In this document: positions 8,584-60,636 of the stretch, piece by piece | Position numbering within the stretch: position 1 is the stretch's first letter | Layout of the letters: each line of letters opens with the position of its first letter | DNA from: an uncultured virus (IMG/VR IMGVR_UViG_3300030450_003626) | Lineage: Duplodnaviria > Heunggongvirae > Uroviricota > Caudoviricetes | Virus record (IMG/VR): IMGVR_UViG_3300030450_003626 | Reading direction: 5' to 3' (one strand) | DNA length: 64,000 nucleotides | The notes under the pieces: generated by a model | Told to the model about the DNA's origin: nothing | What the model saw: the letters and a program-made list of their open reading frames with translations, nothing else | Database searches by the model: none | Position numbers and translations under genes: made by a program

Positions 8584-11073
8584 ATGATTGATCGTCGGTA
8601 TCCGATACAGACCGTTTTAGCGAACCGTAAGATGTTTGCTGGTGGCGGAGTGGTTTCACCACAACAGACGGCCGCTCCTGTTCAACCGTCCATGGGCATT
8701 TTATCGTCTTCCGTTCCTCTCATGGAAGCGGTGGCGGCGGATGCCGTTAATCCCGCTGGTGGCAGCACGATGGTCGAAGCAGCGGAGTTTAGTAACGGTG
8801 GTGCTGTTCAGATTCCCAAATGGAATCCTTCCGGTCCCTCTACTCAATATTTCACGATGCCTAATGGCGATGTAGTGGAGATACCTAAACCCGCACAGGT
8901 AACGCAGTCCCGCGCTGGAGCGGTTGAACCAATAGAGGATATTACAGGTTCTGAAGGCCTTATTTCACAAATTGTGTCAGGATTGACTCCAAGAGGAATG
9001 GACCCTAGGTCTGGGGAACGCACACGGATCGGACCGGGCGCCGACCCAGAAGCACTTAAACGAAGGGCGGGAAGTTATAACACCGCTTCGGAAGTGTTTC
9101 CTGACGAGGCAAAACTAACGGGCGGCGTTCTTGACTCAAAAACAGCAACAAGCGGTCCTTGGTGGGCACCGGGTTCAGGGCAAAGGATGCAAGGGCCTGG
9201 TTCTTTGTTAGAAGATGCTGCCAAGGTTCCGTACAATGTTGCGGATTCTATATTGAGAGAAGCGGGGCAGTTAACAGGCAGAGCAAGAGATACCTTTGTA
9301 GATCTTTGGAACACTGTATCTATACAACACCCCGATGAGGTTGGTAACTTGAAGTTTGCTGAACAGCAGTTTGCGATAGGGGAAGCCCTTAGACGCCGAC
9401 CGACTGTTTCAGGGGTTTCTGACCAAGAGATTTTGGATCGAATTAGCGACACCAGTAAAAAGGCGTTGCAGGCTGACCCACAGGTAAGCGGCGAAGTACT
9501 TTCGGAGGTGTTGTCTAAGGATTTAATTGAGACTTATGAAACCCCCTATCGCCAAGCCACGGAAGGTTTTGGTGGACGTGTGGCGAGTGGAGAACCACCT
9601 GACACCAGCGGCGAAGACATTACTTCTGCGGAAATTGAAGCAATGGATTTAGACAAGCCGGGTTTACTCGGTTTAGCCGCTGATTTCTCAGATGTTGTTA
9701 CAGGGAAATCTGCGGAAAAAATATTAAAAGAACAAAACGCCGTTGTTGAAGGCGCGCAAGAAACTGTGGGCTCCACAAGTGATTCTGGTCCGTCCGATGA
9801 TGCTTTTGACCGGGCTGAAATTGATGCGGAAGACGCAAGCGATGCACCGGGGTCAGGACAGAGGTCTATAGAAGCCTTACTCGCTGCTGGTTTTGATGAT
9901 GTTGTCAAAGAAGCGGAAACACCTGACGAAACCAAAAAGGGAATGAGCGACTACTTTAAAAGATTTAAGGATGCTATGGGGTCGGAATACAAGGGAATGT
10001 CCGATTCCGAAAAGGGTTACGCCATAATGGAAGCGGGTTTAAAAATTATGGCGGGGCAAAGCCCCTACGCTCTTGTCAACATTGCCGAAGGTCTGAAAGG
10101 CCTTGGTCCGCAGTTTGCAAAGGACGCTAAAGAAAAACGAATGTGGGACCGTCAGGTTAATTTGTCAGCGGCCAAATATGCACTCGCGGCGGTTGATAAA
10201 GATACGGAACGGTTGAGAGCTTTTGCGGAAAAAGAAAGAGATTTAATAAGCGTCATGAACCCTAAGACGGGGGACTTGAAGACCGTTACAAAAGCAGATT
10301 TACGGGCCGGAAATATACCCAAAGGATATTTGCCTACAAGCGATCCTTTCAAAAACTGGATTTCTGGGGTAAAAGCTACAAAACAGTTAATTGAGGCCCA
10401 AGCTAAACTTGCTGGTGAAGGGCAAATAACTTCTAAATGGCTTAAAGTAGGGGACGACTATGCGAGTAACGCTCAAAAAGTTTTAGATTCTGTGCAAAGT
10501 AAAACGTTACTGGGGCCTGCTGTAGAAATTTTGTTTCGCGAAAATCAACCAGTAACGGGCATCAGAGGCGTGATTGGCCAAAGTTGGAATAGGTTCTCAA
10601 ACGCGTTTGGTTTTACCGACAATAAATCAATATTAAAAAAAGAAGGAGAAGACAAAGAGAAGTACATCAGTCGCGTTCAAGCGGTCATTGCAAAGAAAAT
10701 TACCGCTATTTTAGGTGAATCTAACCGCACTATATCTACGCCAGATAGAACCAGAGCGGATCAAATTGCAGGTGTGTTTGCAGATTATTTGTGGGCTCCC
10801 ATGGGTGCTGATGTTGATATTTTAAGAGACAAAGTAACAGTGTTGTGGCAAACGCTGGAAAACGACGAAAGACAGGGGTTGGCTAGAATGAAGTTTGCGG
10901 AAGATTCCGTGGGGACTTTGACCGTGCCTGGTGGCGGAAGATTTTTTAGAGATGTTCTACGAGAGCAACGAAAATCTATTTTAAGGAAGTGGGATCCTAG
11001 TGCTAGTCCGGGAAGAGTTCGTAAGTTGTCTGATTTTGGGTACAACATTGAAAAAGGAACTTGGTCTAAATGA
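8584..11073 (+). CDS. Putative internal virion protein
   Basis: 829-aa ORF within the ejection-protein cluster. Confidence 0.5.
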   Translation: MIDRRYPIQTVLANRKMFAGGGVVSPQQTAAPVQPSMGILSSSVPLMEAVAADAVNPAGGSTMVEAAEFSNGGAVQIPKWNPSGPSTQYFTMPNGDVVEIPKPAQVTQSRAGAVEPIEDITGSEGLISQIVSGLTPRGMDPRSGERTRIGPGADPEALKRRAGSYNTASEVFPDEAKLTGGVLDSKTATSGPWWAPGSGQRMQGPGSLLEDAAKVPYNVADSILREAGQLTGRARDTFVDLWNTVSIQHPDEVGNLKFAEQQFAIGEALRRRPTVSGVSDQEILDRISDTSKKALQADPQVSGEVLSEVLSKDLIETYETPYRQATEGFGGRVASGEPPDTSGEDITSAEIEAMDLDKPGLLGLAADFSDVVTGKSAEKILKEQNAVVEGAQETVGSTSDSGPSDDAFDRAEIDAEDASDAPGSGQRSIEALLAAGFDDVVKEAETPDETKKGMSDYFKRFKDAMGSEYKGMSDSEKGYAIMEAGLKIMAGQSPYALVNIAEGLKGLGPQFAKDAKEKRMWDRQVNLSAAKYALAAVDKDTERLRAFAEKERDLISVMNPKTGDLKTVTKADLRAGNIPKGYLPTSDPFKNWISGVKATKQLIEAQAKLAGEGQITSKWLKVGDDYASNAQKVLDSVQSKTLLGPAVEILFRENQPVTGIRGVIGQSWNRFSNAFGFTDNKSILKKEGEDKEKYISRVQAVIAKKITAILGESNRTISTPDRTRADQIAGVFADYLWAPMGADVDILRDKVTVLWQTLENDERQGLARMKFAEDSVGTLTVPGGGRFFRDVLREQRKSILRKWDPSASPGRVRKLSDFGYNIEKGTWSK

Positions 11074-14000
11074 CCCAAATAGAATTTCCATCGGGCGACG
11101 TTGTCGATTTTGAAGACGCCAACGAGCAACAAATAAAGGATGCTGTTGACGGTCTTCGAGAACGAAACCCAGAATTATTTGTTGAAAAAACTTTTGATTA
11201 CGGAACGGCGTCTTTTGACGAAATTGTGGCCCGTGCCCGTGGGGAACAATCGGGTTTGACCGGAGGAGACCCGTCAACGTCCGAACCTTCTTTCTCACCC
11301 ACTATTGAGGGTCAGGTTACCGATTACAACACTCGTTGGGAGTTTGGTAAAAAAGATACGGTTGAGGAAGAAGAAAAGTTTTTAACTGAGAAGTACGGAC
11401 CAGACTCTTTCGGCAGAGATGACAGCGGTAATTACTTTCTTAAACTAGACAATATTTCCCCCGAAATTAAAGCTAACAACAATTTAGCGAACTCTGGAAC
11501 CATGTGGTTCAACCGACCGGGGGGTGGTTTCCTTGGATTGTTTGACGCGCCAGATGTTGTTGAGTTTTTAGGAAAGTACCGGGGGGAATTGATTGGTGCT
11601 ACTGGTGCCGCCATGGCGGCATCTGGTCTTGGTCTGATCCCAGGATCGATCCTAATAGGTCTTGGAGCGGGTCTCGGTAAGGGGGCGGATGAGTACTTAG
11701 AAACTCGAGAAGGTTCTCAATTACAATCGGCTGATGAAATATACGGTGATGTAGCTACAGCGGCGGCGTTTAACGCAGGGGGTAACCTCCTTATCGGCGG
11801 CGTGCTTAAAGGCCTTGGTCGGATAATTAAAGGACCCGGCAACCCTGACGCTCAAGTTATTTCAGACCTTATGGATCAGGGCCTAACAGCAGGGCAGGCA
11901 AAAGCGGCAGCTGTGCAACTGCAACGAACTTCCACTAGAGAAGCCATGGAAGAAGGTTTGAGGCCCACTATTCTCGATGCTACGGGAAAGGCTGTTTTGG
12001 GTAGAATGCAGGCTATTCATGAAGGGATTTTTCCTAACAGAGCGGCCGCCCGTTCAAACCGTAAATATGTTGAAGACTTGTTAAATAAATACAGAAATGG
12101 TGAGTTGAGCGGGGACGCTTTGGGCGAAGCCCTTGATCAAAACGCCAAAAACATTACCAACATGCTGGCGCAAGCAATGAAAGATCCTGATGATGCTGTG
12201 AGGTTGGCTAACCAGCATCTTCGTAAAGTTATAGACGAAGAAATAGCTTTGCTGAAAAAGTTGTACACGCCAGGAGACGAAACTGCCGCAGCCTTTCAAA
12301 ACGAAGTAACTCGTATGGTTCGCCTGTGGCAGAACAATAACAAACAGCTATACGGCAATGCGTCAGAAGCGCTTGGAGAAAACAAGCTTTTTAAATCTTC
12401 AGATTTACAAGCCGTTGTAAAAAGACAACTCAAGCAACCTTTGGCTGAAGAATCTGGATTAAAAAACAATCCAGTGTACAAGTATATTTTAGGGAAGACT
12501 GACGACTACACTTTGAAAGAGCTCCAGACGCTTCGTACTGCGGTAAACAATTCTCGTAGTAGTAGCTTGGTTGGTGACGTTGGGGATTTTGAATTAAAAG
12601 AATTGGCCGATACGTTGGACAATATGTTTTCGGCCGCGAACAAAGATGTAATGGAAAGAGTAAGTGTCGTCAGGTCTATCTTAAACACTTCACCAAATGC
12701 TGTGCCGCAATATCGCGATCTCGGACCTTTCGTAAACATTCCCCAAGGGAAAAACCCCGGAATGTTTTTAAGTAGGCAGGAAGCTGAACAAACCTTAAAA
12801 ACTTTAGACGACGGCTTTCGTCTTTTAAAAGAAGCCGATGCACATTACGCAAAAGGCGCTGAATCATTTAAAACAGGCGCCTTGAACATGCTTAATCGTA
12901 ACGTCAAAGATGGGTACTTCGCAGATTTAAACTCAGTGGTGGAGACCGTTGTACAAAACGGCAAGCCAGAACTTCTTAAAAAATATTTAAAAGCCGTAAC
13001 GCCCGAAGAGTCTGTTCGTGGAACCCTTCAATCTGTTCCGGAAACTCAATGGTTGTTGATGGCTGACGCAGCGAAAAAGAATAACATTGAGGAAATAAAC
13101 AGACTTCTTCAAAACAATTTTCCAGCACTAGCGGCTAACTTTGGCGATGCTAAGGCAAAAGCTTTAAGGAAAATTGGTTTAAGTTTTAAGCCCGAAAAGT
13201 TTTTAGAAACTCTTGGCCCTTGGGACCCTTATCGAAACAGTGTCTTAAATGACTTAGCTGAGACGTTTACTTTACACGCGGCAGACTCCGCAGCGGCGGC
13301 ATCCGGCAGACTTCATAAAGATGTAAGTCGTCAGATGCTGGCAAAATCATGGATGAAGACAGCTTGGCAAAAATCCAACGATATGGATGTGTTCGACCCG
13401 GTAAAGTTTCGGCGGCAGTTTGACGACTTAGGCAAGGAAGTCCAGCAAGAACTTTTTGGGGAATCTGAAGCCCGAAGATTGAACAGCGTTTTAAAAGATT
13501 TTGCCTTGGTTGCCCGAGACAGAGTTAAGGGTGGTTTAAGATTTCAGAACGCTGATACCAACACCATTATTAACTCCAACATGCGTAACATTGTGTCCAA
13601 CCTTCAAGACGACGTTGCTGAAGCGCAAGCACAAAGTACAAGTGCATTATTCCAAGCAATCAAGTCTGGTAGGGTTGATGACGCTGACACTTTAATCCAA
13701 GCGGCGGTAAAAGATCCTCGTTTGCTGGATGATCTTGTTTCCAAGGTTCCTGACGCTGTGCTTAACCAACCATATGGTTTACGGGACGCTGCGATGTCTC
13801 GTGTTATTCGTGAGGCTTTTCCAGATGGGGTTACGGAGGAAGCCGTAATAAACGGGGCATGGCAAAACGGTATGCGGGCTGCGTTAGAAAACATGAACCA
13901 GCGTGGTTCTTTAAACAAGATATTGGGACCAGAGACGGTACAGGATCTTTTAAAACTAACGAAGCTGCCTGTTGGGGATCGATCCCTCCGCGGGAAAGGC

Positions 14001-19604: not shown

Positions 19605-21118
19605 CTCGTTTGCGGCATGATAACGTGAAGTGATTTCTTGGCTCTGGTCGCCCCCACATAAAAGACCCGGTGTTCTATGCTAGGGTCTCTTAGATACGAC
19701 TTGTGGGCGGCGTAGGATAAATCCGGAACAAGCAATATGTTGTCCGCTTCGCCACCCTTCATTGAGTGTATGGTAGAAACCTTGATCCGCGGGTTCCTGA
19801 CGTTGTCCTTTCGGCGGAGAGCATTCAACACATAGTTCTTCGTATCAAGATCGATACGACTAAGGGCTTGGTGCCAGCGCGCAGAGCCGCTCTGGAGCAA
19901 CCCAAACTTGTCGTAGGCGTCCGACATGTAGACCTGATCGTCCGAAGGTATCCCCAGAAGGGGCCTTGAACGCGCTCCGAAGCCCTTGGAGTAGCCTTCT
20001 TCGGATTTTAGGAAGGAGTAGAGGTTGCGAACCTTCTCGCCCGTCAGAGCGTTCCCTCGGCACCAAATCTCCCAATCCTCAATCGCCTCGTAGGTTTTCA
20101 GCGGAATGCTCGGATGACCGTTCCGGCTGTAGACCCAACCCTCATCGCGTAGAACCGTAGCGATGGTACTCGCGATTCGGTTCGTTCGAGCCAAAACACA
20201 CCACTCGCCCTCATCGATCGGTACATCCCAAACATCGTGGTGGTAACGCACGCTGCCTTCTTCATCCTTGGGCCGCCACGCCTTCGGAGCTCTGTCCCTG
20301 ATGCGGTTAACAATATCCTGGGCTTGGCGCCAAACGGACACCGGCAACCGATAGGATTGACTCAAGACTGTCTTCTTCTCTGTCGCGGAGAGAAACGCGC
20401 CAACATCGGCGCCTTGGAAATTCATTATAGCTTGGTCGTCATCGCCCGTAAAAACCTGTATGTGAGGATTCTTCCGAAGTACACCGACCATGGCCCATTG
20501 AAGGGTGGACAGATCTTGGGCCTCGTCAACAAACAAGGCATCAATGTCTGGGCACAAGTCCTCCCGCACGAAATTCTCAATCATGTCTGTGAAATCGATC
20601 TTCCCGCGGACAGACTTATAGTCCTCATACGCACGTACCAAACGCCTCAATTCCGGCCACTTAACGTTGTAGTCTGCCAGTTGCCGGTGCATCTCCTCGA
20701 GTTCGATACACTTGCTACGCGCTAGATGATACTGGCTCATGTAGAAGTCGCCCTTGGACGGCCCCAGCGTGTCAAAGTCAGACTCCGTGAAGGCGGAGCG
20801 TCCCCTGCCAAAAGGTATCCCGACCTCTTGCCCAATTTCTTTCATGTCTGCGAGGCCGATAACATCATCGGAACGGTACCCGCCAGCACGAAACGCCATG
20901 GAATGCAGCGTTTGGAAATAAGGCATATCTCTTTCGTCAATACCCCAATCCCGGCTAACCCGTTCGCGGCTCTCCTGCGCCGCCTTCCGCGTAAAAGAGA
21001 CGCACGCGATACGATCAGGCGGGATACCCTGTTCGATGCACTCCCGAATCCTGTTTGAATTGGTTTGGGTCTTCCCCGTTCCCGGCGGTCCTAAGATAGT
21101 CTCATGTTGATCAGTCAC
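19586..21118 (-). CDS. Superfamily 1 (UvrD/Rep-like) helicase
   Basis: GPPGTGKT, VDEAQD, GDDDQAI, QSYR, STIHSMKGGE and YVGATRAK motifs. Confidence 0.95.
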   Translation of the reverse strand: MTDQHETILGPPGTGKTQTNSNRIRECIEQGIPPDRIACVSFTRKAAQESRERVSRDWGIDERDMPYFQTLHSMAFRAGGYRSDDVIGLADMKEIGQEVGIPFGRGRSAFTESDFDTLGPSKGDFYMSQYHLARSKCIELEEMHRQLADYNVKWPELRRLVRAYEDYKSVRGKIDFTDMIENFVREDLCPDIDALFVDEAQDLSTLQWAMVGVLRKNPHIQVFTGDDDQAIMNFQGADVGAFLSATEKKTVLSQSYRLPVSVWRQAQDIVNRIRDRAPKAWRPKDEEGSVRYHHDVWDVPIDEGEWCVLARTNRIASTIATVLRDEGWVYSRNGHPSIPLKTYEAIEDWEIWCRGNALTGEKVRNLYSFLKSEEGYSKGFGARSRPLLGIPSDDQVYMSDAYDKFGLLQSGSARWHQALSRIDLDTKNYVLNALRRKDNVRNPRIKVSTIHSMKGGEADNILLVPDLSYAAHKSYLRDPSIEHRVFYVGATRAKKSLHVIMPQTRWSYDI

Positions 21119-21560
21119 TCTCTACACCCCATTTAAATTTCAGCTGCCCATAGACCGGTTGCCAATCCCTGCCCGGCCTGTTCAGCCAAGACCCCGACCC
21201 ATCAGTTTCTCCGATAATCTTCCAGCCTGCGCCACGCAAACTAGACCCACTTTCCGACTTCAATGTATAGGTGATCATTTTCTTGCCCCCCATCTGCTGC
21301 CAGACTCTCCAACAACGACCATATAAAAATGAACAAGTGTTCTTGGGGCTGTCATCTAAAACACAAAGCCGGGTTACCTCTGCCGTAAAACCGTCATCAT
21401 TCTTCCGTGCAATCGGCCGTCCCACTATCGCAACCCCCAAAAGGCTATCGCCATCACTGGCACCGATGCAGAATTTTGCGCCTTGCACAGGTTTGTTGTG
21501 CCTGTGGAAGTTCCGCACAAATTCATTGGACTCTCGGAGTGTCATAGGAACGACCATCAA
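21111..21560 (-). CDS. XF1762-family phage protein
   Basis: HRHNKP, GVAIVGRPIAR, EVTRLC, CSFLY and ESGSSLRGAGW motifs. Confidence 0.7.
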   Translation of the reverse strand: MMVVPMTLRESNEFVRNFHRHNKPVQGAKFCIGASDGDSLLGVAIVGRPIARKNDDGFTAEVTRLCVLDDSPKNTCSFLYGRCWRVWQQMGGKKMITYTLKSESGSSLRGAGWKIIGETDGSGSWLNRPGRDWQPVYGQLKFKWGVESD

Positions 21561-27731: not shown

Positions 27732-27906
27732 CGTCTACTTCAAGCGCTTCTCTGGCAGTGCGGCCGAGCCATTGCACGCACGTGCCACCCTCCAAACCAA
27801 GGGACGAAACGTCGGCAATGTCCTGTAAAGCCAACCGCAGTTTTTCAATTCGGACTTTCTCGTCCACTATCATGTCATTCGGCTCCTTCAGCCGCGGCAA
27901 TAGCAT
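27706..27906 (-). CDS. Hypothetical protein
   Basis: Short ORF in operon direction. Confidence 0.4.
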   Translation of the reverse strand: MLLPRLKEPNDMIVDEKVRIEKLRLALQDIADVSSLGLEGGTCVQWLGRTAREALEVDDEDQQWGN

Positions 27907-28855
27907 ACCCTATTTCTTCCGCGATTTGCGGGATGATCGTGTTTCCCAAGGCACGCAACTGAGATACTCGATTGGGTACCCCATGAGCCAAGCGACCCAC
28001 ATCGGGTTCAAACTGCCACCAAGCCTGTGGCGTTCGGCCGCCGACTTCTGACCACGGCCCTTGGCCGCCCCCACATCCGGCGTCGGAAACATCTGAACCG
28101 CCAACGTCAAAGGCGTTCCCCCCTGGCTGTACTCCTTCGTCCGCTCCGTGGCGCTGTCCTGCGTCGGCGTCGGCCACATGCCCCTTGCCTTTGCCGCCTT
28201 GCGTGAGTTGCTCCCGCCGTCTAAGCCCGTTGTCCGTGGCGTCGGCCACAAAGTCGAAACCCAGTTGCCGCTGCCGGATGTTGCCATCGAAGGCGCCATC
28301 TGGTTCGCTTTCGCTGTCGGCGTGTGCAACAATCCAGAGTCGCTGCCGGATGTGCGGGGCGCCAACCGCGCAAGCTGGAATATTAAACGTCCTTGTGGCG
28401 TAGCCTTCGTTTTCCAAGTCAGAGAGTACTTCGTCCAAGCCCAGTTGGACGAGCCCAATAACGTTTTCTCCAACAACCCAAGTGGGCCTGCATTCCCGGA
28501 TAAGTCTAAACATTTCCGGCCAGAGGTGGCGGGGGTCGTCTTGAGCTCGTTGCTTTCCTGCGTGGGAAAATGGCTGGCAAGGGAATCCTCCGCAAATAAC
28601 ATCGGGTCGGGTCGGGAGGTCGGGTCCTTGGACATTTCTAATATCCTCCAAAACAGGAACGTCGGGCCAATGATGCTTCAGAACCGCTTGGCAATACGGA
28701 TCCTGCTCTACAAAACAAGTCGTACTAAAAAAGCCGGTGGCCTCGAGCCCTCGCGCGAAGCCACCGATTCCCGAAAATAGGTCCAGTGTCTTTAAAGCCA
28801 CTGAAACATGCCAGCCAACAAGCCACCCAAAAACACCAGAGCAAAATATTCCCAA
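27875..28855 (-). CDS. C5 cytosine DNA methyltransferase, large polypeptide (lacks motif IX)
   Basis: DLFSGIGG (I), GGFPCQPFS (IV), ENV (VI), HIRQRLW (VIII), LRALGN (X); true start probably near 28804. Confidence 0.9.
   Translation of the reverse strand: MGIFCSGVFGWLVGWHVSVALKTLDLFSGIGGFARGLEATGFFSTTCFVEQDPYCQAVLKHHWPDVPVLEDIRNVQGPDLPTRPDVICGGFPCQPFSHAGKQRAQDDPRHLWPEMFRLIRECRPTWVVGENVIGLVQLGLDEVLSDLENEGYATRTFNIPACAVGAPHIRQRLWIVAHADSESEPDGAFDGNIRQRQLGFDFVADATDNGLRRREQLTQGGKGKGHVADADAGQRHGADEGVQPGGNAFDVGGSDVSDAGCGGGQGPWSEVGGRTPQAWWQFEPDVGRLAHGVPNRVSQLRALGNTIIPQIAEEIGYAIAAAEGAE
27910..28635 (-). CDS. Putative second methyltransferase polypeptide in an alternate frame (TRD plus motif IX)
   Basis: Nested same-strand ORF with four (W/H/F)PTP-type repeats and LNPMWVAWLMGYP, resembling motif IX. 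Confidence 0.7.
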   Translation of the reverse strand: MSKDPTSRPDPMLFAEDSLASHFPTQESNELKTTPATSGRKCLDLSGNAGPLGLLEKTLLGSSNWAWTKYSLTWKTKATPQGRLIFQLARLAPRTSGSDSGLLHTPTAKANQMAPSMATSGSGNWVSTLWPTPRTTGLDGGSNSRKAAKARGMWPTPTQDSATERTKEYSQGGTPLTLAVQMFPTPDVGAAKGRGQKSAAERHRLGGSLNPMWVAWLMGYPIEYLSCVPWETRSSRKSRKK

Positions 28856-28861
28856 CCCATC

Positions 28862-29020
28862 CTACTCTCCCAGTTCTCTTTGCGAGACACCAACTTCCAT
28901 AAGTTTCGTAACATTAACCTCTCCTTGATTGTCACAAACGTTACAATCAGACACCGAATCGTCATCCGCGTTACGAACGTAACCGTTCCCGTAACACGTG
29001 GTACAGATTTCCCTAGGCAT
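28862..29020 (-). CDS. Small DnaJ-type zinc-finger protein
   Basis: CTTCYGNG...CNVCDNQG; GGAGG RBS. Confidence 0.6.
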   Translation of the reverse strand: MPREICTTCYGNGYVRNADDDSVSDCNVCDNQGEVNVTKLMEVGVSQRELGE

Positions 29021-29786
29021 TTTCTTCCTCCCTGTCACTCGCCACCAGAACAGGCGACGGCCGGTTGAATTGAAATACCGCACGGGCAAAGCCGCGCGGG
29101 GTCGCACTGCGGATGTTCTTGGTCCTTAACGACTTGCCGCCCGTCTTGCCCAAAATAGGCGAAAACACCCTGCTCTTCGTCGGATCGGTCCTGTCATACG
29201 CAATAGACAAGTGCGGAACACTGCGAAGCATCGGCATCTTGAACCCGCCACCCGTCCATAGACAGGTGCGCTTGCGGTACGCATCACGCGGCGGAATAAT
29301 GTCAGGCCATTTCGGATGAACATCGTCCTCTGGCAAATAACCACCAAAATCGCACGGGTCAAACCTGTGATCAGGCTTGTGCCACAAACGCGATAACGCA
29401 CCCACAGGGTTCTCAATGTAGTACGGGCAACCCAAAGACCCCGCAAACCAATCAGTTAACAGAACATGATTCGCCGCTTCCGTCTGAAAATCCGGATTGG
29501 CCTTTGCCTTCTTGGACCACCAACGCGCACCAGACGCCGCAAGGTCCGTACAAGGCGGGAACGCACTCATGAAGACAGCGCTGTCCGCATGGCGATGCAG
29601 TAAACAACGCAATGTATCTAAGTCGTACAGGTCAGCGTGCGCGTAAGTGATAGAGCCAGAACGGTGGATCGAGGTGGTGGAAGTGGAATGCTGAATGTCA
29701 TACGCAAAACACTCATACCCAGCCTCTGCCCACGGGCGTAAAGCCTCGCCCGTGTAGTCATACAACGAAATAACTTGGTTTCTCAT
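29013..29786 (-). CDS. Phage Dcm-like DNA methyltransferase
   Basis: ISLYDYTG, FPPCTDLA, IENPV, YRKRTCLW and RSATPRGFA motifs. Confidence 0.75.
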   Translation of the reverse strand: MRNQVISLYDYTGEALRPWAEAGYECFAYDIQHSTSTTSIHRSGSITYAHADLYDLDTLRCLLHRHADSAVFMSAFPPCTDLAASGARWWSKKAKANPDFQTEAANHVLLTDWFAGSLGCPYYIENPVGALSRLWHKPDHRFDPCDFGGYLPEDDVHPKWPDIIPPRDAYRKRTCLWTGGGFKMPMLRSVPHLSIAYDRTDPTKSRVFSPILGKTGGKSLRTKNIRSATPRGFARAVFQFNRPSPVLVASDREEENA

Positions 29787-29812
29787 AACTCTCCCTTTCT
29801 AAGTTCTCGCGT

Positions 29813-29842
29813 ATTGTAGCATGAATCATGGACCACGGTCAA
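29813..29842 (-). promoter_or_regulatory. Sigma70-like promoter for the methyltransferase operon
   Basis: TTGACC-18 bp-TACAAT on the minus strand. Confidence 0.6.
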
Positions 29843-29849
29843 ATGTGAA

Positions 29850-30193
29850 TTGCCTTGCCATGCCCGGAGTTGCCCAACCGTGCCGCGCCGTGCTTCGCCA
29901 CGACTGACTTGCCTTGCCATGCCCGGCCTTGCCCTACCCGGCCTTGCCATACCGCAACTGCCTTGCCTTGCCGCACGCTGACTCGCCAGGCCGCACGCTG
30001 CCACGCCTAGCCTAAACTGACTTGCCCGGCCGGACCTTGCCTCGCCATAACTGCCTTGCCTTGCGTTGCCGAACCCGGCCCGGCCCCGCCTGACCTTGCT
30101 GTGCGTTGCCACACCGCGCCATGCCTAAACTGCCTTGCCTTGCCTAGCGGTGCCGTACCTTGCCCCGCCCCGCCTCGCCCAGCCGCGACTGAC
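29850..30193 (-). ncRNA. GGY-NN pentamer array, six units; putative guide-RNA precursor
   Basis: 64 pentamers counted by hand, 49 starting GGY and all 64 with a pyrimidine at position 3; register slips only at six GKCA-GTY junctions; starts 5 nt after the upstream stop codon. Confidence 0.8.
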
Positions 30194-30198
30194 TCGAG

Positions 30199-30675
30199 TT
30201 AAGGACTGATCAGGTAATCCCCGTGACTCTTCAAATCACGGCACAAGGCCCGCATACTGCGCGCACGATTAGCCTGAGAAGCGTCCATCTTCAATTCAGA
30301 CAAAGCCTCAAGCTTCGCCGATAATTGATCGACGCTGCCCACAACCTCACCGATTACAAAATCAAGCTTGGACTGATCCTTCACAACACGCTGCAAAGGC
30401 TCATAACGACGGTCAGGGCTGTCGTTGATCTCAACAGAAACATACTTGGGCGTCCTGCTTCCCGAAGGCGTAACAATCTTTACCCGCTTGATCAAAACAC
30501 GCGCCTGACTGATCCGATGCTGATGACCCGCCTTGGCATCGTCCCACTCAAACCATGAGTGGAGCGGGTTGTTGGGGTCCTTTGCGACCTCAACAACCGC
30601 CTCTGGCGTCAGACCAGTTTCTGTCTGGTCAATCCTGTCTAACTCATCGGATAAAACAGAGTTTTTCAACACCAT
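30199..30675 (-). CDS. Accessory protein of the RAMP/array module, function unknown
   Basis: 158 aa; LTPEAVVE.AKDPNNPLHSWFEWDD..A...R..QAR motif; TAATG-coupled to the RAMP gene. Confidence 0.75.
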   Translation of the reverse strand: MVLKNSVLSDELDRIDQTETGLTPEAVVEVAKDPNNPLHSWFEWDDAKAGHQHRISQARVLIKRVKIVTPSGSRTPKYVSVEINDSPDRRYEPLQRVVKDQSKLDFVIGEVVGSVDQLSAKLEALSELKMDASQANRARSMRALCRDLKSHGDYLISP

Positions 30676-31301
30676 TATGCCGCCTCCGAAAGCTCACTGA
30701 CCATGGCAACGTCACCCAATTCAAAACGACCAAAATCGCCGTTCTTCTCAGGGCGCCACTCACCAATGCCAACGGACAAACCCGCACGATACAAAAGAGA
30801 CGCAATCGAAGACGCCGAAATGTTGTCCTCGTCATATTCAATCGTCAGGGTAGCACTCCATTGCGGGAACTCAGGACGATACCGAAGGTCCATGGCCTGT
30901 TGGACCTTGACCTCATCCGTCCGCATTATCGGCTCCCCGTGAATACGAACGCACGGGATTTGACGAACAACATCACGACCATCAGCCTCAATGAAAAACA
31001 TCTGACGAGCGTCAGTCATGGTGATCCCGTCAACCATCTTGCTGGCACGAATTGCCGCCTGCTTGAAAGCATTACAAGGAAAACCATACGAACCGTCTTC
31101 GAGCTTATAAAAACAGGCTTCATACTCCTCCTGCGGTTTACGCTTCTCACGCTTTACCGCTTTCTTGATGCCCGCGTGCTTATCCTGCATCTGCCTACGG
31201 ACCTTTTCCGAATACGCATTGCAGATCAACCCCGACCGACTCTTGATCGAAAGGTTCAACACGTTAAAGTTTACAGGCTGGATCTCAACAAGATTACTCA
31301 T
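30675..31301 (-). CDS. Stand-alone RAMP (Cas7/Csm3-like) RNA-binding protein, 208 aa
   Basis: N-terminal beta strand then SGLI; YGFPCNAFKQA (like the P.SS.KG motif of Cas7-group RAMPs); RPEFPQW; C-terminal Gly-rich loop AGLSVGIGEWRPEKNGDFGRF; GGAG RBS. Confidence 0.75.
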   Translation of the reverse strand: MSNLVEIQPVNFNVLNLSIKSRSGLICNAYSEKVRRQMQDKHAGIKKAVKREKRKPQEEYEACFYKLEDGSYGFPCNAFKQAAIRASKMVDGITMTDARQMFFIEADGRDVVRQIPCVRIHGEPIMRTDEVKVQQAMDLRYRPEFPQWSATLTIEYDEDNISASSIASLLYRAGLSVGIGEWRPEKNGDFGRFELGDVAMVSELSEAA

Positions 31302-31333
31302 CACTTTCTCCATCTCTTTCTTTGTGGATAACC

Positions 31334-31363
31334 ATAGTACCTTTAAACATGGACCATGGTCAA
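31334..31363 (-). promoter_or_regulatory. Sigma70-like promoter of the RAMP module
   Basis: TTGACC-18 bp-TACTAT; shares 15/16 nt (TTGACCRTGGTCCATG) with the promoter at 29827-29842. Confidence 0.6.
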
Positions 31364-31430
31364 TACAGTTATTCCCTATATACAGCGATTTGAGAAAAAT
31401 GTTTTTTAAAAATAAATTTTGGACCAAAAT

Positions 31431-31545
31431 AAGTGTATAAGTGTATATGGGTGTATTTTCTACCTGTAGCAGGTTGATAATGTTCAATTTAGGTCAATAC
31501 ACTCTTTATACAGACTATACACTTGGTACCCTTTTTATACACTTT
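31431..31545. repeat. Cluster of inverted GTGTAT / ATACAC repeats in an AT-rich intergenic region
   Basis: Three GTGTAT copies (31433-31456) face three ATACAC copies and one ATACAG (about 31497-31542). Confidence 0.6.
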
Positions 31546-31621
31546 TCTAGCCGCACGGCCATTTGACCATGGGAAATAACAGGGTTATTTTGAAAAGTGC
31601 TTGTTATAGGGAGAGACCTCG

Positions 31622-32209
31622 ATGAAGCGTAAAATGGAAGTGAAAGCAGAGCAAATTGAAGAGGCTCACGGGCGGAAGCTGACCAATCGGCAAAAGACCT
31701 TTGCCCGACATTACGTGGACGGTACGCACTCAAACGCGGAATGCGCGCGTCTTGCCGGGTACTCTGACAAGAACGGTATCGCGAAAATCCAAGCGCACAA
31801 ACTGCTCAACGCTAAATACTTCCCGCACGTTGCCGAGTACGTTTCAGAGCTCAGGGAGGAGCGTGAACGGAAGTATGGTGTAACCCTCATGGGTCAGTTG
31901 AAGAGGCTCCGCGAACTCTCGGAAGGTGCTGAAGAAGCCGGTCATTTCTCCGCAGCTATCAACGCGGAAAAGACTAGATCTGCCTTGGGCGGCCTTACAA
32001 CGGATCGACGGGAGACGAACCACTTCCACGCCATTGAGAACATGAGCCGTGACGAAATTGAGAACAGGCTTTCAGAATTGAGGAAGAACCACCCAAGCGT
32101 TTTTGTAGAAGCCCAGTATGAGGTTATAGATGGCGCAGAATCCCGAAACGCTGATGTGGAAGAATCTTCGGGCAAAGATGCCAAAGCATTGGCACACCAC
32201 GAGGATTGA
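31622..32209 (+). CDS. terS: Terminase small subunit
   Basis: LTNRQKTFARHYV...ARLAGYS HTH, AAINAEK..LGGL pattern. Confidence 0.8.
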   Translation: MKRKMEVKAEQIEEAHGRKLTNRQKTFARHYVDGTHSNAECARLAGYSDKNGIAKIQAHKLLNAKYFPHVAEYVSELREERERKYGVTLMGQLKRLRELSEGAEEAGHFSAAINAEKTRSALGGLTTDRRETNHFHAIENMSRDEIENRLSELRKNHPSVFVEAQYEVIDGAESRNADVEESSGKDAKALAHHED

Positions 32210-32594
32210 AAATAGGTTTGGGGGAGGTATCCCAGACGTTCATGTATGCGCGGAAAGTTTGGCTTTTTGGATAGAACTCAAAACAACCAAGACTAACCGC
32301 GTAAATGTTTCAGCACATCAAGTTGCTTGGAATTTTGCGTATTCTCAGTCGGGTGGCGTAAGTTTCTTCCTTGTTGCCCCTCTCTCTTCCTCAAACCTAT
32401 ATTTGTTTGACGGTAGCCAAGGTCGGGGCCTCGCGGAACACGGACTTAGGTCGGGGTCGGTCGGGTCAGGGACAATGGTCCCGTGCCTTTGGTCGGGGCC
32501 GGTCGGGTCGGGGTCGGGGTTTTTCGATGCGTTGCTCGAGATCGTTCGGGGTCGTGTCGGGGCCGGTGGCCCGCGGCAATCTGCCGCCGAATAA
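32130..32594 (+). CDS. PD-(D/E)XK nuclease, Holliday junction resolvase / VRR-NUC-like
   Basis: E..., RIEN..GGGIPDV, WIELK and HQVAW motifs. Confidence 0.75.
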   Translation: MAQNPETLMWKNLRAKMPKHWHTTRIENRFGGGIPDVHVCAESLAFWIELKTTKTNRVNVSAHQVAWNFAYSQSGGVSFFLVAPLSSSNLYLFDGSQGRGLAEHGLRSGSVGSGTMVPCLWSGPVGSGSGFFDALLEIVRGRVGAGGPRQSAAE

Positions 32595-32597
32595 AAT

Positions 32598-32631
32598 ACC
32601 CCGACCGGCTCAAGGGGAAAAGCCGGTCGGG
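32598..32631. terminator. Stem-loop between convergent genes
   Basis: ccccgaccggct / agccggtcgggg inverted repeat. Confidence 0.55.
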
Positions 32632-32665
32632 GCGGCCACCCGATGCATCGGGTGGCGCGGCGCCA

Positions 32666-32938
32666 TTATGTGTCAACAACCGGCGCCGAACTCTGGAGTT
32701 CTTTCGTTATCAGGTCCCTGTATGCGACATATTCCTCAATCATGTTGCCAACCAGGGCTTCGCTGACAGGGGTTCCCTGTTCCGTGTAATGGTCCGCGAT
32801 CGATCGGTAATTGTGTCGGACGGGGTCTCGTTTGCCCCCGCAACGGGGGCACGGCCGAACCTCCCTTCGACCGTCCCGCTCGAGTAGGTACATTTCGCGT
32901 GCGTGCCAAGCGCGATCTTTTGCTGTGAATTTGGTCAT
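32666..32938 (-). CDS. Hypothetical protein
   Basis: Coupled to the upstream gene; one CxxC. Confidence 0.5.
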   Translation of the reverse strand: MTKFTAKDRAWHAREMYLLERDGRREVRPCPRCGGKRDPVRHNYRSIADHYTEQGTPVSEALVGNMIEEYVAYRDLITKELQSSAPVVDT

Positions 32939-33678
32939 CAGTACCCCCGCACTACAAAGCCGCTTTCGTCCGCTTTCGCTTTCTTGCCCTTCGGATCCAG
33001 CCCGACAATGACAGGCGACGGGTCCAAATGCCGCAAGTCATGTTCCGTCCCGTCGATGACGGGGCAACCCATGAACGTTTTAGGCTGGCCATGGCCAAAC
33101 ACTACCGCCACGTTATGACCCGCGGCGAGTACCTTTTCCGCGTCGGCTTTGTTCGTTTCCGATAGGCTAAAGGTCAAGTGATAGTTGTCTGGCTTGCGCT
33201 GGTCCAGAATGCGCCGTGCGTTTTTGGTGTAGTCAATGAATTGCGTTTCCGGGAACCGTTCCGGCAACGTTTGGCCATTGTCCGTTTTTACCCGCTCAAA
33301 CGGAATGTCCGTTGACCCGTTCGGACGAATGGCCAGCTTCTTGTTTTCGCGTTCCGCTTTCCGGACCATTGCGCGGATATGGTGCGCCATTTCGGCCATG
33401 AACGCGTTCCGGTCGGTCATAAAAAACTGCGCCTTTGCTTTGCGGCTTTCGCGCACCGTGTTGGTCCCGTGTTCAAGGTCGGAGACCATTGCGGCTTGCC
33501 CGCTGTACATGCCAAGGCATAAGTCGCGGCAACCTTGGCTCGAGTGCGGGCACAAGTTACCGGCGCCGCCCGTGGTATGGGGAGCCATATAGTTGATGGC
33601 GTTTAGGTATCCATACTTGTCGGCTTTGATAGCCTTCGCGCTATCAGTCGAAAAGAATTTTGTGAACTTGGGTTTCAT
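32938..33678 (-). CDS. GP88-family (radical-SAM-like Cys cluster) phage protein
   Basis: NLCPHSSQGCRDLCL, RPNGSTDI, FIDYTK, NYHLTFS and IDGTEHDLR motifs. Confidence 0.7.
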   Translation of the reverse strand: MKPKFTKFFSTDSAKAIKADKYGYLNAINYMAPHTTGGAGNLCPHSSQGCRDLCLGMYSGQAAMVSDLEHGTNTVRESRKAKAQFFMTDRNAFMAEMAHHIRAMVRKAERENKKLAIRPNGSTDIPFERVKTDNGQTLPERFPETQFIDYTKNARRILDQRKPDNYHLTFSLSETNKADAEKVLAAGHNVAVVFGHGQPKTFMGCPVIDGTEHDLRHLDPSPVIVGLDPKGKKAKADESGFVVRGY

Positions 33679-33787
33679 GGTGATTTTCCCGTTGTTGGTT
33701 GTTGACGGTCCTATATTACCATTATTTTCCAGGATGTCAAGTCGGGTTTATCGGGTCGGTCGGGGTCGGGTCGGTCGGGGTCGGGGC

Positions 33788-33821
33788 ATAAAAAAGCCCC
33801 GGCCAGGGTGGCGGCCGGGGC
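33788..33821 (-). terminator. Rho-independent terminator
   Basis: gccccggcc / ggccggggc stem followed by T6 on the minus strand. Confidence 0.65.
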
Positions 33822-34071
33822 ACCCGGTAGTTACCGAGCAGCAACCAGGGAGGTAATCGCGCTCGAGGTACGGGCGCCGGCAGCTTACGGCCGGCCCCGC
33901 TCCCCCGTCAACTACTCTAGGCGTTCGTTCAGTTCATCTTCCGTGTATCCGTGGAAGCACGTGCCGCAAACCAATTTGGTTTCTAACCATTCGCACGGCG
34001 AATTGTGGGGGTCAAACATCCCCCCACAAGAATCGCAATTGACTGTTTCGTTTCCGTAGAAACCTGCATCG

Positions 34072-51972: not shown

Positions 51973-52481
51973 TGGCTATTGGATCATCCGCAGTTTGCGG
52001 AAGTTACAAGCGTGAGATAAATGCGGGCATTCATTTTTGGACTTCGCACTCCCGTGGGGACGGCACTACCATTAACGCAGATACCTTTAAGATAGCGTTG
52101 TTCACCAACAGTTCGTCTATTGATGCCGACACCACGGGTTATTCAACAAGCAACGAGGTTAGCGGTACGAACTACACCGCAGGCGGAGAAGCGTTGTCGA
52201 GTGTAACGATAGGACTCGCAGACAACAGCAGTTCTGTTCCTACAGCGTTTATAGACATGGCGGATGTTACGTGGTCTTCAGCCACTATTACGGATGCGCG
52301 AGGTGCCCTGATTTATAACTCTACGTTAGCAAACGCAGGAACCGCGGGCACTACAACCCACGCGGCAAAGCCCGCCGTTTGTGTGATTAACTTTGGCGCG
52401 GACAGTTCTTCGAGTGCCGGTAACTTTACTGTTACGATGCCCACAAACGACGCTAACAACGCTTTGATTCGTATTGCGTAA
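51972..52481 (+). CDS. Tail-associated structural protein
   Basis: FKIALFT, EVSGTNYTAGG, ARGALIYN and A.IRIA motifs. Confidence 0.65.
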   Translation: MAIGSSAVCGSYKREINAGIHFWTSHSRGDGTTINADTFKIALFTNSSSIDADTTGYSTSNEVSGTNYTAGGEALSSVTIGLADNSSSVPTAFIDMADVTWSSATITDARGALIYNSTLANAGTAGTTTHAAKPAVCVINFGADSSSSAGNFTVTMPTNDANNALIRIA

Positions 52482-53053
52482 TGTCTGTTTTTGGCTGGGG
52501 CAGAGGGACTTGGAACTCCGGGGCGTGGAATAGTTCTCTTCCAGTTACGGGAGTGTCCGCTGCTACGGCGGTTGGTAGTGTACGAGTAGACATACAGCTT
52601 TCCGTCACGGGAATTTCTGCTTCGACGGCAGTTGGCAGTGTTACGGTAGTTGGAACGGCGAACGTTACTCCTTCTGGGGTATCTTCGGCCACAGCGGTTG
52701 GTAGTGTAACTGTAGCGGGAGCGGCGAACGTTACTCCTTCTGGGGTATCTGCTGCTACAGCGGTTGGTAGTGTAACTATCAGCGTTGTTATGTCAGTTAC
52801 GGGGGTATCTGCTGCTACAGCGGTTGGTAGTGTAAGTGTATCGGGAACGGCGAACGTTACTCCTTCTGGGGTATCTGCTGCTACAGCGGTTGGTAGTGTA
52901 ACTGTAAACATCTCAACCGGGGTTACAGGGGTGCAAGCCTCTACGGCGGTTGGCAACGCATTTGTCTGGGGTATAATAGTTCCGGGGCAGACACCTGAAT
53001 GGGGCGGAATAGTTCCGGGGCAGACACCTGAATGGACTGATATAGCGGCATAG
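52481..53053 (+). CDS. Tandem-repeat beta-rich tail protein
   Basis: Seven GVSAATAVGSV-type repeats; GWGRGTW N-terminus. Confidence 0.7.
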   Translation: MSVFGWGRGTWNSGAWNSSLPVTGVSAATAVGSVRVDIQLSVTGISASTAVGSVTVVGTANVTPSGVSSATAVGSVTVAGAANVTPSGVSAATAVGSVTISVVMSVTGVSAATAVGSVSVSGTANVTPSGVSAATAVGSVTVNISTGVTGVQASTAVGNAFVWGIIVPGQTPEWGGIVPGQTPEWTDIAA

Positions 53054-53062
53054 GAAGAGAAC

Positions 53063-54754
53063 ATGGCTTCTACCTTTACGACAAGTTTTGGCATAGAGAA
53101 GATTGGATCCGGAGAGCAATCAGGAACGTGGGGTACTACGACCAACCACAATTTTGATCTTCTGGACCGCATCGCTTCCTATACCACCGTGGCGTTGTCT
53201 GGTTCGACCCATACTTTGACAGTACGTGAAGCATCCCCAGGTTCTGGTACTGAAAACCTTCAAGATGGTATGTACCGGGTTATTAAATTTACGGGGGCGT
53301 TAGGAGCAAATAACACCGTAACTATCGCCCCGAATACGGCAAAGACATACTTTATTATTGAAAACGCCACTACCGATTCTGGTTCTAGCGGGCCGTATTC
53401 CGTTATTCTTTCTCAAGGTACAGGCGCAAACGTCACCGTCCAAAACGGTAAAAACGCGGTTGTTTATTGTGATGGCGCGGGTTCTGGCGCTGCCGTTGTC
53501 GATGCTCTCGCGGATCTTCAAATTGGTACGTTGGAAGTTACTGGCGCGGCCGCAATTGATGGTGCTGCTACACTAGGTAGTACTCTTGCGGTTACGGGCG
53601 CAGTGACGGGCAGTTCGACTATTCAAGGTACAACCATAACTGCCACTACAGCGTTTGTGCCAGATGCGTCAGATGGTGCTGCGCTTGGTACAACTTCATT
53701 AGAATTTAGTGATCTTTATCTCGCTGACGGTGCTGTAATTGGTTTTGGTGATGACCAAGATGTAACGCTGACCCATGTTGCTGATACTGGACTGCTTTTA
53801 AACAGTACAATGGCGCTTCAGTTTAATGACGCTTCTCAATATATCAACGCCCCAAGCGCCACTATTCTAGATATCAATGCTACAGATGAGATTGAACTTA
53901 ACGCTACATTAGCAGATGTTAATGCCAACCTAGATGTGTCAGGTACTATAGTGGGCGCATCTACTATCCAAGGCACAACTATTACGGCTACAGGTAACTT
54001 AATCGCTAGTGGAACGGTTGAACCAGCAGGAGATACCTCTGCCGGTGACAACGCTGCAATTGGTTACACTGCCGCCGAAGGATTGATCTTAACCGGACAA
54101 GGCAGCACATCGGATCTGACGGTCAAAAATGACGCCGACGAAACAGTTTTTACGGTGCCAACCGGCTCCGACGATATTTTGTTTCCCGATAACGCTAAAA
54201 TTCTACTTGGCGCTGGTAGCGATCTAGAGATTTATCATTCCGGAAGTCACAGTTATATTAACGACGCCGGGACAGGCAATTTGTATTTAGCTGGCGACAA
54301 CTTGGCGCTAACGTCTGCCGGTACATCCGAAAGTTATCTTCAGGCAGTTAAAGACGGTGCGGTTACTCTTTATCACGACAATAGTGCGAAAATCGCAACG
54401 ACCTCTGTTGGGGCAACTGTTACTGGCACGCTGATAGCCACCACAGATACAGACACAAGTAATACTGGCAGTGTCACTCTAGATTTTGGAGCTAACCAAA
54501 ATTTTGTGCTTACATTTACCGGAAACGTCACTCTAGCTAATCCATCTACAGAACAGGTTGGACAGGCTGGTGTTATAGTTTGTATTCAGGACGGGACCGG
54601 TAGCAGAACGCTTAGTCTGGGAACAGACTACGAAACTGCTGGAGGTTCTGGAATTACTCTTAGCACGGCAGCTAATGCGGTTGATGTTATACCATACTTT
54701 GTTAAGGCTTCTGGTTCAATCCAGTTAGGCGCACCACAACTGGCTTTCAGCTAA
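53063..54754 (+). CDS. Tail fibre protein
   Basis: GEQSGTWG.TTN.N N-terminus, DLEIYHSGSHSYI.D.GTGNL, and VTLYHDNSAKIATT fibre motifs. Confidence 0.75.
   Translation: MASTFTTSFGIEKIGSGEQSGTWGTTTNHNFDLLDRIASYTTVALSGSTHTLTVREASPGSGTENLQDGMYRVIKFTGALGANNTVTIAPNTAKTYFIIENATTDSGSSGPYSVILSQGTGANVTVQNGKNAVVYCDGAGSGAAVVDALADLQIGTLEVTGAAAIDGAATLGSTLAVTGAVTGSSTIQGTTITATTAFVPDASDGAALGTTSLEFSDLYLADGAVIGFGDDQDVTLTHVADTGLLLNSTMALQFNDASQYINAPSATILDINATDEIELNATLADVNANLDVSGTIVGASTIQGTTITATGNLIASGTVEPAGDTSAGDNAAIGYTAAEGLILTGQGSTSDLTVKNDADETVFTVPTGSDDILFPDNAKILLGAGSDLEIYHSGSHSYINDAGTGNLYLAGDNLALTSAGTSESYLQAVKDGAVTLYHDNSAKIATTSVGATVTGTLIATTDTDTSNTGSVTLDFGANQNFVLTFTGNVTLANPSTEQVGQAGVIVCIQDGTGSRTLSLGTDYETAGGSGITLSTAANAVDVIPYFVKASGSIQLGAPQLAFS
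54489..54582 (+). repeat. Exact 94-bp direct repeat, copy 2
   Basis: Identical to 1-94. Confidence 0.95.
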
Positions 54755-56409: not shown

Positions 56410-56421
56410 GAGAATAAAATA

Positions 56422-56925: not shown

Positions 56926-56953
56926 ATATTATTACAAGAAGGAGAAAGATACG

Positions 56954-57199: not shown

Positions 57200-57219
57200 A
57201 ATAAAAAAAAGGAGGAAGC

Positions 57220-57384: not shown

Positions 57385-57387
57385 AGT

Positions 57388-60105: not shown

Positions 60106-60182
60106 ATGGGATGAGTATGCAGATGCGTTTTGATTTTTGATTTAGTTTACAATATGATGAAGAAAAAACAGGAGATTAAATA

Positions 60183-60620: not shown

Positions 60621-60636
60621 ATATTGGAGAATGTAA

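Follow-up and report, generated by a model that had tools for sequence, protein, structure and literature searches.

VIPR (Viral Interference Programmable Repeat) systems, first described in 2026, are reported to silence DNA under the guidance of RNA (10.64898/2026.04.26.720920). Their Vipr protein is a minimal RAMP, and the guide RNAs, termed vrRNAs, consist of 9–16 YNNGG repeats. Each repeat is bound by a single protomer that sequesters GGY and presents the two variable bases, NN; base-pairing of the NN series with double-stranded DNA passes over every third base, and binding silences transcription, with satellites, prophages and rival VIPRs as the reported natural targets (10.64898/2026.04.26.720920; 10.64898/2026.04.26.720927; 10.64898/2026.10.15.759431). 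The present analysis concerns a stretch of 64,000 nucleotides (nt) from an uncultured virus of the Caudoviricetes (IMG/VR record IMGVR_UViG_3300030450_003626), here called the window, in which positions 31363–29850 of the minus strand form a unit of ~1.5 kb with two genes and six guides. This unit is very probably a VIPR system of a marine tailed phage, with the genes vipr and vap and, as its array, six vrRNAs in a 'staggered' arrangement. The assignment rests on homology to the SUSP1 Vipr protein, the Cas7/Csm3 fold, the largely conserved GGY contacts, the conserved layout, and hypervariable NN positions behind a fixed scaffold.

An earlier, sequence-only reading of this DNA had proposed a non-CRISPR programmable binder, possibly directed against competing phages or host genes, and had suggested the name VIPR. 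The name is real, and the mechanism published under it for Escherichia phage SUSP1 is the one proposed (10.64898/2026.04.26.720920, 10.64898/2026.04.26.720927). Among the published arrangements are 'staggered arrays with overlapping vrRNAs', in which neighbouring vrRNAs overlap by 1 nt, each beginning where its predecessor ends (fig. S18 legend, 10.64898/2026.04.26.720920). Small-RNA sequencing is reported to have confirmed the ribozyme and single-vrRNA forms, not the staggered arrays (10.64898/2026.04.26.720920).

The vipr–vap gene pair

The first gene of the unit, vipr (30675–31301, minus strand), encodes a minimal, Cas7-like RAMP of 208 amino acids (aa), with a G-loop at G174–F193 and a thumb-like β-hairpin at residues ~125–145 that carries R142. 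The motif YGFPCNAFKQA (residues 72–82) and the C-terminal loop GLSVGIGEWRPEKNGDFGRF (residues 174–193), both of which the sequence-only reading had quoted, are present in the protein. Pfam holds no family for it, and in PHROGs it belongs to phrog_4652, of unknown function (E 1.3e-29). A single-sequence search of all PDB sequences matched 36pp_D, 'SUSP1 Vipr protein' (E 1.5e-7), and a profile built from 43 homologues of the vipr family matched the same chain at E 1.9e-12 over residues 16–197 of the 208. The homologue from phage vB_EcoM_ESCO50 (hereafter ESCO50), judged by eye to be near-identical to the SUSP1 chain, was aligned by hhalign with a probability of 97.8%. The AlphaFold model of the protein (pLDDT 89.6, pTM 0.84) retrieved, in a Foldseek search, only Cas7-family chains at probability 1.0, namely Csm3 and type VII Cas7; the predicted model thus recovers the Cas7/Csm3 fold and supports the earlier RAMP/Cas7-like reading.

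The cryo-electron microscopy (cryo-EM) structure of SUSP1 Vipr names the residues that hold GGY, including H17, R138, D177, W178 and R179 (10.64898/2026.04.26.720927). These five were mapped through alignments to SUSP1 and ESCO50, in which E71/M72 and C173/T175 are placed less securely, and by alignment their equivalents in the window protein are N28, R142, E181, W182 and R183, respectively. Four of the five are kept or conservative: R142, W182 and R183 are invariant in all 43 family members, and the position of D177 holds Glu in 39 members and Asp in four. The family itself is large. A word-indexed search gave 452 matches at E ≤ 1e-3, and of 1.84 billion representative proteins the profile matched 7,645 at E ≤ 1e-3, including 1,619 at E ≤ 1e-30.

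The second gene, vap (30199–30675, minus strand), encodes 158 aa and is translationally coupled to vipr, the TAA of which overlaps the vap ATG as TAATG; both open reading frames (ORFs) are intact, and a GGAG stands 8 nt before the ATG of the vipr ORF (31301–30675). Vap belongs to phrog_15946 (E 3.4e-24, PHROGs), and has no Pfam family and no sequence relative in the PDB. In its AlphaFold2 model (pLDDT 92.4), an N-terminal helix/β-wing domain (residues 1–97) is followed by a long C-terminal helical hairpin (101–156). The weak top rows of a Foldseek search with this model are winged-helix regulators such as 1ku9 (probability 0.96), the VIA match covers a generic helical hairpin only, and an Atlas search returned only viral clusters labelled 'hypothetical'. 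Judging from the model and these weak matches, Vap is probably a DNA-binding winged-helix dimer, a reading that fits the report that several vap genes encode winged-helix-like or helix-turn-helix-like proteins (10.64898/2026.04.26.720920). Two phage proteins also match the profile of the window vap family, gp20 of Gordonia phage ODay at E 4e-40 and gp46 of Mycobacterium phage Brocalys at E 5e-37.

The pair is conserved well beyond the window. The comparison set comprised the 80 best viral-contig loci encoding a Vipr relative, some of them clipped by contig ends, and in 71 of these a vap homologue adjoins vipr, mostly directly downstream. GGY arrays of period 5 were found on the vipr strand in 46 of the 80 loci, compared with one of 80 on the opposite strand, and the array bases total 11,494 on the vipr strand versus 40 on the other. 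These loci support the observations made in the window.

All components that the sequence-only reading had listed for the minus-strand unit, namely a promoter, the 208-aa gene, the TAATG-coupled 158-aa gene and a 344-nt GGY-NN array, are found in the sequence. The promoter scan predicts a σ70-type promoter at 31334–31363 (minus strand; TTGACC, 18 nt, TACTAT; inside TTGACCNTGGTCCATG). This 16-nt motif occurs in exact form in the window only twice, at 31348–31363 and 29827–29842, both on the minus strand, against a chance expectation of 0.09. The second copy lies in the next predicted promoter (29813–29842, minus strand; TTGACC, 18 nt, TG-TACAAT), which drives a DNA methyltransferase gene (29786–29013, minus strand; phrog_757, E 2.1e-63) and constitutes the 3' limit of the array. 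The phage-specific motif thus flanks the VIPR unit on both sides. No terminator was predicted between the array and the second promoter (29842–29813). The arrays of the related loci L004, L005, L008, L009 and L010 are likewise closed by the promoter motif (TTGACANTGGTCCATG), so that the last guide always continues into the −35 box of the next gene. Between the divergent vipr and small-terminase genes, the intergenic region (31364–31621) contains repeated GTGTATA/ATAAGTGT words, which may be operator sites.

The earlier statement that the window lacks cas genes and a CRISPR-type array agrees with three separate scans. Annotation of the 77 window ORFs with PHROGs gave no Cas protein, and PADLOC, run on 21 proteins, gave no Cas family, the 208-aa protein matching none of the PADLOC Cas7 models. 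A direct-repeat scan of the 64-kb window detected no repeat-spacer array, only the pentamer array and coding repeats near 52.5–53 kb and 58.7 kb. A search of 29500–31700 against Rfam found no family, and hence no hammerhead.

The pentamer array, its six guides and their turnover

The G-rich tract of GGY pentamers spans 344 nt (30193–29850, minus strand) and begins 5 nt past the vap stop codon, as the sequence-only reading had it. It is unique in the window: on both strands, runs with at least six GGY in eight pentamers at period 5 occur only at 30194–29845 (minus strand), and in none of 20 shuffles. GGY is present in 52 of the 63 pentamers, and positions 1–3 carry 1.35, 1.66 and 1.37 bits of information, compared with 0.38 and 0.16 bits for positions 4 and 5. 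The RNA structure of the array is not unusual (z −1.49).

The 'strict 5-nt periodicity' claimed earlier did not survive, because five one-base slips divide the array: 45 GGY-to-GGY steps are in phase and five are one base short. Each slip comes after a recurring ...GGCAAGGCAAG(G/T)CAGT(T/C) motif, and together they split the tract into six units of 59, 79, 34, 59, 54 and ~52 nt, the first five all being 5n−1 nt long. This six-unit, staggered layout is missed when the tract is regarded as a single array, as it had been. The units are delimited by GGCAA(G/C)GCAAG(G/T)CAGTT, a motif of ~17 nt, and bear no structured tail. A leader copy of the delimiter, GTCAGTC (30187–30193, minus strand), stands 5 nt past the vap stop, and L004 and L010 have the same ...AAGTCAGTT leader ahead of their first unit.

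All six units lie on the minus strand. Unit 1 (30128–30186, 59 nt) carries the NN series (GC) TG GA GG GG AA AC AC TA and ends in the delimiter GGCAAGGCAAGGCAGTT, and unit 2 (30049–30127, 79 nt), with 15 pentamers, reads (TA) AT GC GT AA AC AA CA GG CG CG TC AA and also has a delimiter end. Unit 3 (30015–30048) has 34 nt, and a variant of it with 30 extra bases (six pentamers) occurs in the DNA run X7. It is followed by unit 4 (29956–30014, 59 nt), with NN (TA) TA GT AG GC CT GA AG GC, and unit 5 (29902–29955, 54 nt), with NN (GC) AT AA CG AG AA CG AT. Unit 6 (29850–29901, ~52 nt; NN (GT) GA AC GC AC TG AA CG AT) runs into the next promoter and has no full delimiter; an array end at the promoter motif is also seen in L004, L005, L008 and L010.

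One-base slips are a general property of the related arrays, in which 1507 GGY-to-GGY steps are in phase, 130 are one base short and six are of other kinds. Since 130 of the 136 out-of-phase steps are −1, the one-base slip is regular punctuation of the clade. The delimiter-to-delimiter intervals of the window and five relatives are similarly regular, 31 of 32 being 5n−1; the exception is an interval of 58 nt in L009.

The guides themselves differ widely between close relatives. L002, the Vipr of which is 100% identical to that of the window, has the same array but for one base. In L004 and L010 (Vipr 96% identical), with eight and ten units, respectively, the NN are wholly different behind the same delimiter, GGCAA(C/G)GCAAGTCAGTT, and no window guide occurs in either locus; L005, L008 and L009 (Vipr 76–77% identical) likewise combine different NN with the same delimiter. 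L004 and L010 have most units in common, and L010 has extra ones. In sequence, unit 5 of L010 (4310–4363) looks like a chimera: it begins like the 5' half of unit 7 and continues like the 3' part of unit 4, with the join at a shared GG-AA-TC stretch. This suggests that recombination within the array may give rise to new guides.

Metagenome contigs from four runs were also compared, and the differences within populations concentrate in the array. In run X9, contigs show 9 and 1 differences on 29700–29994 and 30038–30180, respectively, and none over 30178–31450. Run X7 holds the above variant, a 30-nt in-phase insertion in unit 3 placed behind 30043, and one contig of run X13 skips 69 nt (5n−1) of the array. 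The locus as a whole recurs, with 0.44–0.97 of the sampled words present in 16 rows not marked as a possible source; these represent 14 studies whose labels read marine, estuary, seawater or viral metagenome. The unrelated guide sets at 96–100% Vipr identity, the apparently chimeric L010 unit and the natural 30-nt insertion and 69-nt deletion are the grounds for a tentative and rather doubtful proposal, namely that the array is a cassette store whose guides, bounded by the fixed delimiter of ~17 nt that is readable in two registers, are gained, lost and recombined as 5n−1 units far faster than the proteins change. Guide acquisition by a dedicated or recombination-based route, if true, would amount to a primitive 'adaptation' in a proposed ancestor of CRISPR.

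Together with the published work, these observations suggest a model of how the locus may operate. The single predicted promoter would transcribe vipr, vap and the array together, in keeping with the lack of a predicted terminator between them. The precursor would be cut at or near GGCAA(G/C)GCAAG(G/T)CAGTT, giving six RNAs of 34–79 nt (5n−1); this step is proposed because the delimiter is conserved and because it agrees with the published description of staggered arrays. By homology to the SUSP1 cryo-EM structure, one Vipr protomer would then occupy each pentamer, with GGY held by the G-loop (E181-W182-R183), the thumb (R142) and the β-sheet (N28) and NN left exposed. The homology to SUSP1 Vipr thereby lends support to the sequence-only idea that one protomer grips the GGY of each pentamer and displays NN. 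As in the published type II system, the NN series would pair with double-stranded DNA, skipping every third base, and block transcription of the bound gene, and Vap, probably a DNA-binding dimer according to the weak structural matches, may assist. The likely purpose would be to silence genes carried by rival phages, prophages or satellites that share the host.

Guide targets and alternative readings

VIPR guides are reported not to match their own genome, and a threshold of 80% NN match has been published (10.64898/2026.04.26.720920). Using the 1-nt skip, the six window units were compared with the window as 11 queries, some of which included the conserved end and some not. For guides with at least seven NN the best matches reached 64–75% and thus stay under that threshold. 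A 6-NN query from unit 3 matched at 11 of 12 positions and did equally well with zero or two skipped bases, so this match is at chance level. In a wider comparison, 27 guides from the window and seven relatives were run against the window and the 80 loci, and did no better than skip-0, skip-2, reversed and shuffled controls. Guide 2, as an exact 12-NN pattern, had no match in viral contigs; its 10-NN seed gave one genome-contig match (Herbaspirillum) and two identical metagenome matches, in which none of the three flanking NN match, as expected by chance. Three 9-NN guides of relatives gave zero, zero and one match (the one being in L131), also at chance level.

Guide 1, with eight NN, provided the most tempting lead. 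It has exact matches (16 of 16) in 19 viral loci, ten of which represent one gene family on provirus contigs, where the match lies in frame over W-[DE]-G-G-[KN]-T-T-Y and the skipped base coincides with the wobble position. The matched gene encodes a CI-type repressor (Peptidase_S24, E 1.7e-13; Phage_CI_repr, E 3.4e-5), and targets of the CI-repressor type are reported for Pseudomonas VIPRs (10.64898/2026.04.26.720920). The exact motif is present in 13 of the 120 best homologues of the repressor. On a bold interpretation, guide 1 would shut down CI-type repressors of prophages, and prophages resident in the host would be driven out as a result. This interpretation was not accepted. The 19 matches represent only ~9 independent ones, similar to the eight matches (seven independent) of guide 4, with two for guide 6; the flanking NN mismatch; and the remaining guides, which gave nothing above controls, show no convergence on the five complete proviruses. 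The proviruses have 60–62% G+C versus ~50% for the marine phage, and the named homologues, from Achromobacter and Bordetella, fit a marine phage poorly.

Several points weigh against reading the locus as a VIPR system that works as published. The window Vipr is only ~25% identical to the characterized SUSP1-type Vipr, so that both the 1-nt-skip rule and the targeting of DNA, not RNA, are extrapolations for this clade. In SUSP1, G1 is contacted by a His, H17; the window has Asn (N28) at this position, which holds His in 40 of the 43 relatives and Asn in three. The fold assignment of Vap is weak, with nothing retrieved by Foldseek at E ≤ 1e-3, and Vap is not of the SUSP1 type, the profile of its family giving no match at E ≤ 10 on the gene in the vap position of ESCO50. 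Unit 3 is short and has only four variable NN. The only RNA-library run, X20, yielded a single 171-nt contig; it lies on vap, not on the array, may be DNA and is evidence neither way. The making, processing and binding of vrRNAs at this locus are proposed from homology. Natural targets were established for none of the six guides by exact-pattern scans of limited power, for which NN matches of 80–95% are beyond reach.

Some of these points would suit a genuine Vipr-family locus of a clade that works differently, either by binding RNA in the manner of Csm3 and Cmr4 or with another DNA spacing. The low identity leaves room for such a divergence, and the nearest solved folds outside VIPR, Csm3 and type VII Cas7, are RNA-targeting. 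The clade also has another vap family, no structured tail and the His-to-Asn change at the G1 contact, and the 1-nt-skip searches gave nothing above chance. We consider this unlikely nonetheless: all seven VIPR types are reported to have GGY/NN or related repeats, with 1-nt-skip targets also for guides of types III and V (10.64898/2026.04.26.720920), and the contacts to G2 and Y3 and that of the thumb are invariant in the family. The failure of the target scans says little here, given that they were exact-pattern scans of limited power.

It is very unlikely that the locus is a decaying or idle VIPR, with inherited genes and repeats whose guides direct nothing useful. Both ORFs are intact and translationally coupled, and the locus recurs in the 16 metagenome rows from 14 studies noted above. 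That arrays turn over at 96–100% Vipr identity looks like selection on the guides. Unit 3 is indeed truncated relative to its natural variant, 11 of the 63 pentamers depart from GGY, N28 stands in place of a conserved His, and the scans found no targets; internal degeneracy of vrRNAs is, however, reported to be frequent (10.64898/2026.04.26.720920). Least probable of all is that the tract is not a guide array at all and instead is coding (a 109-aa ORF at 30112–29783 overlaps it), G-rich structural DNA (it is G-rich on one strand) or a set of protein-binding iterons beside a RAMP-like gene, since close relatives shift 5n−1 units and swap NN wholesale, which would destroy a reading frame, and since such arrays are tied to vipr and its strand (46/80 versus 1/80) and always accompany vipr and vap even where, as in ODay and Brocalys, their position varies.

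Phage context and relation to known systems

The window is a tailed-phage genome with genes for a large terminase, a portal, major head and tail proteins, DNA polymerase A, a primase, helicases and two DNA methyltransferases, along with a Mom-like gene; no tRNA was found in it. Pelagibacter phages HTVC027P and HTVC023P, phage 023Pt_psg01 and phage DSL-LC04 have terminases 57–64% and polymerases 47–48% identical to those of the window, which comes from a phage related to pelagiphage-type viruses. Directly downstream of the VIPR unit are the two DNA methyltransferase genes (27875–29786, minus strand), which match phrog_757 and phrog_363, the latter also matching PADLOC cytosine methylase models. 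The Mom-like modification gene lies further on (21111–21560, minus strand) and forms an anti-restriction/counter-defence cluster with the methyltransferases.

Other repeats of the window differ from the array. G-rich tandem repeats of TCGGGTCGGTCGGGG (2.3 perfect copies at 33751–33785, plus strand) precede a GGGGC-A6-GCCCC hairpin, and runs of GGTCGG resembling them occur at 32449–32520 (plus strand); neither set comprises GGY/NN arrays or has hypervariable positions. Coding tandem repeats at 52550–53032 (plus strand), of 60/66 nt in seven copies and 33 nt in two copies, lie in ORFs at 52481–53053 beside tail-protein genes. The G+C content drops from ~0.50 to 0.32–0.38 over 56000–64000, a region that may represent either an assembly join or a module for host recognition gained by horizontal transfer; a 905-aa ORF at 57388–60105 resembles proteins of Pseudoalteromonas, Pelagibacter, Roseobacter and Vibrio phages at 25–43% coverage. 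The ORFs at 266–1987 and 54754–56409 (both plus strand) both match phrog_19943 and phrog_27411 (virion structural protein), and, as structural genes stand at either end of the window, possible explanations are a paralogue pair or a circularly permuted record.

Compared with CRISPR-Cas, the window lacks Cas10, Cas5, Cas6, Cas1, Cas2 and a repeat-spacer array, and its guide information is non-contiguous. Csm3, Cmr4 and type VII Cas7 are 8–18% identical to the window Vipr, and the CRISPR step is 6 nt compared with 5 in the window.

The type II VIPR of SUSP1 (PDB 36pp) and vB_EcoM_ESCO50 resembles the window locus in its homologous Vipr, with the G-loop G-[DE]-W-R-P and the thumb Arg, in the GGY/NN repeats on the vipr strand and in the two-gene operon. 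The vrRNAs of SUSP1 are separate, each with an invariant structured 3' tail of ~40 nt, and lie on both sides of the genes, as seen in the intergenic regions of ESCO50, whereas those of the window form six contiguous units. Relative to the type II systems of SUSP1 and P. fulva, the window also differs in its vap (vap1 in type II), in N28 for H17 and in a Vipr of ~25% identity. Without the ~40-nt structured tail and with a different vap, the window locus departs from the type II description.

Two actinophages, Gordonia phage ODay and Mycobacterium phage Brocalys, carry such gene pairs (gp19/gp20 and gp45/gp46, respectively), with Vipr proteins 36–43% identical to that of the window, the same vap family, and GGY arrays with one-base-short steps. 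The array is placed otherwise than in the window, where it follows vap: in ODay it separates vipr from vap, and in Brocalys it stands upstream of vipr. The junction motif of the two, GGCAGGCNNGGC, differs from the window delimiter. Both phages infect high-GC Gram-positive hosts, and Brocalys is temperate, with an immunity repressor and an excisionase in the locus. In both records (ODay, 10343–11608; Brocalys, 32505–33957; L085 and L086 of our set) the genes are annotated as hypothetical and the GGY arrays are unannotated. The same gene pair has thus stood unannotated in well-studied Gordonia and Mycobacterium phages, and the clade is large.

The window locus shares with the published staggered VIPR arrays, as far as these are described in the source, a lone Vipr RAMP, one vap and tandem GGY/NN pentamers, all phage-encoded and without cas genes. 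By the text of the fig. S18 legend, the likeness extends to units that abut with a one-base offset and measure 5n−1 nt in the window. The delimiter-bounded 5n−1 layout and the fast turnover of guides offer material for questions on the processing of staggered arrays and the origin of guides. The locus leaves the VIPR picture unchanged; as a compact example from an uncultured marine phage, it extends the systems published so far, which are reported to have been mined from NCBI records, into abundant ocean viruses.

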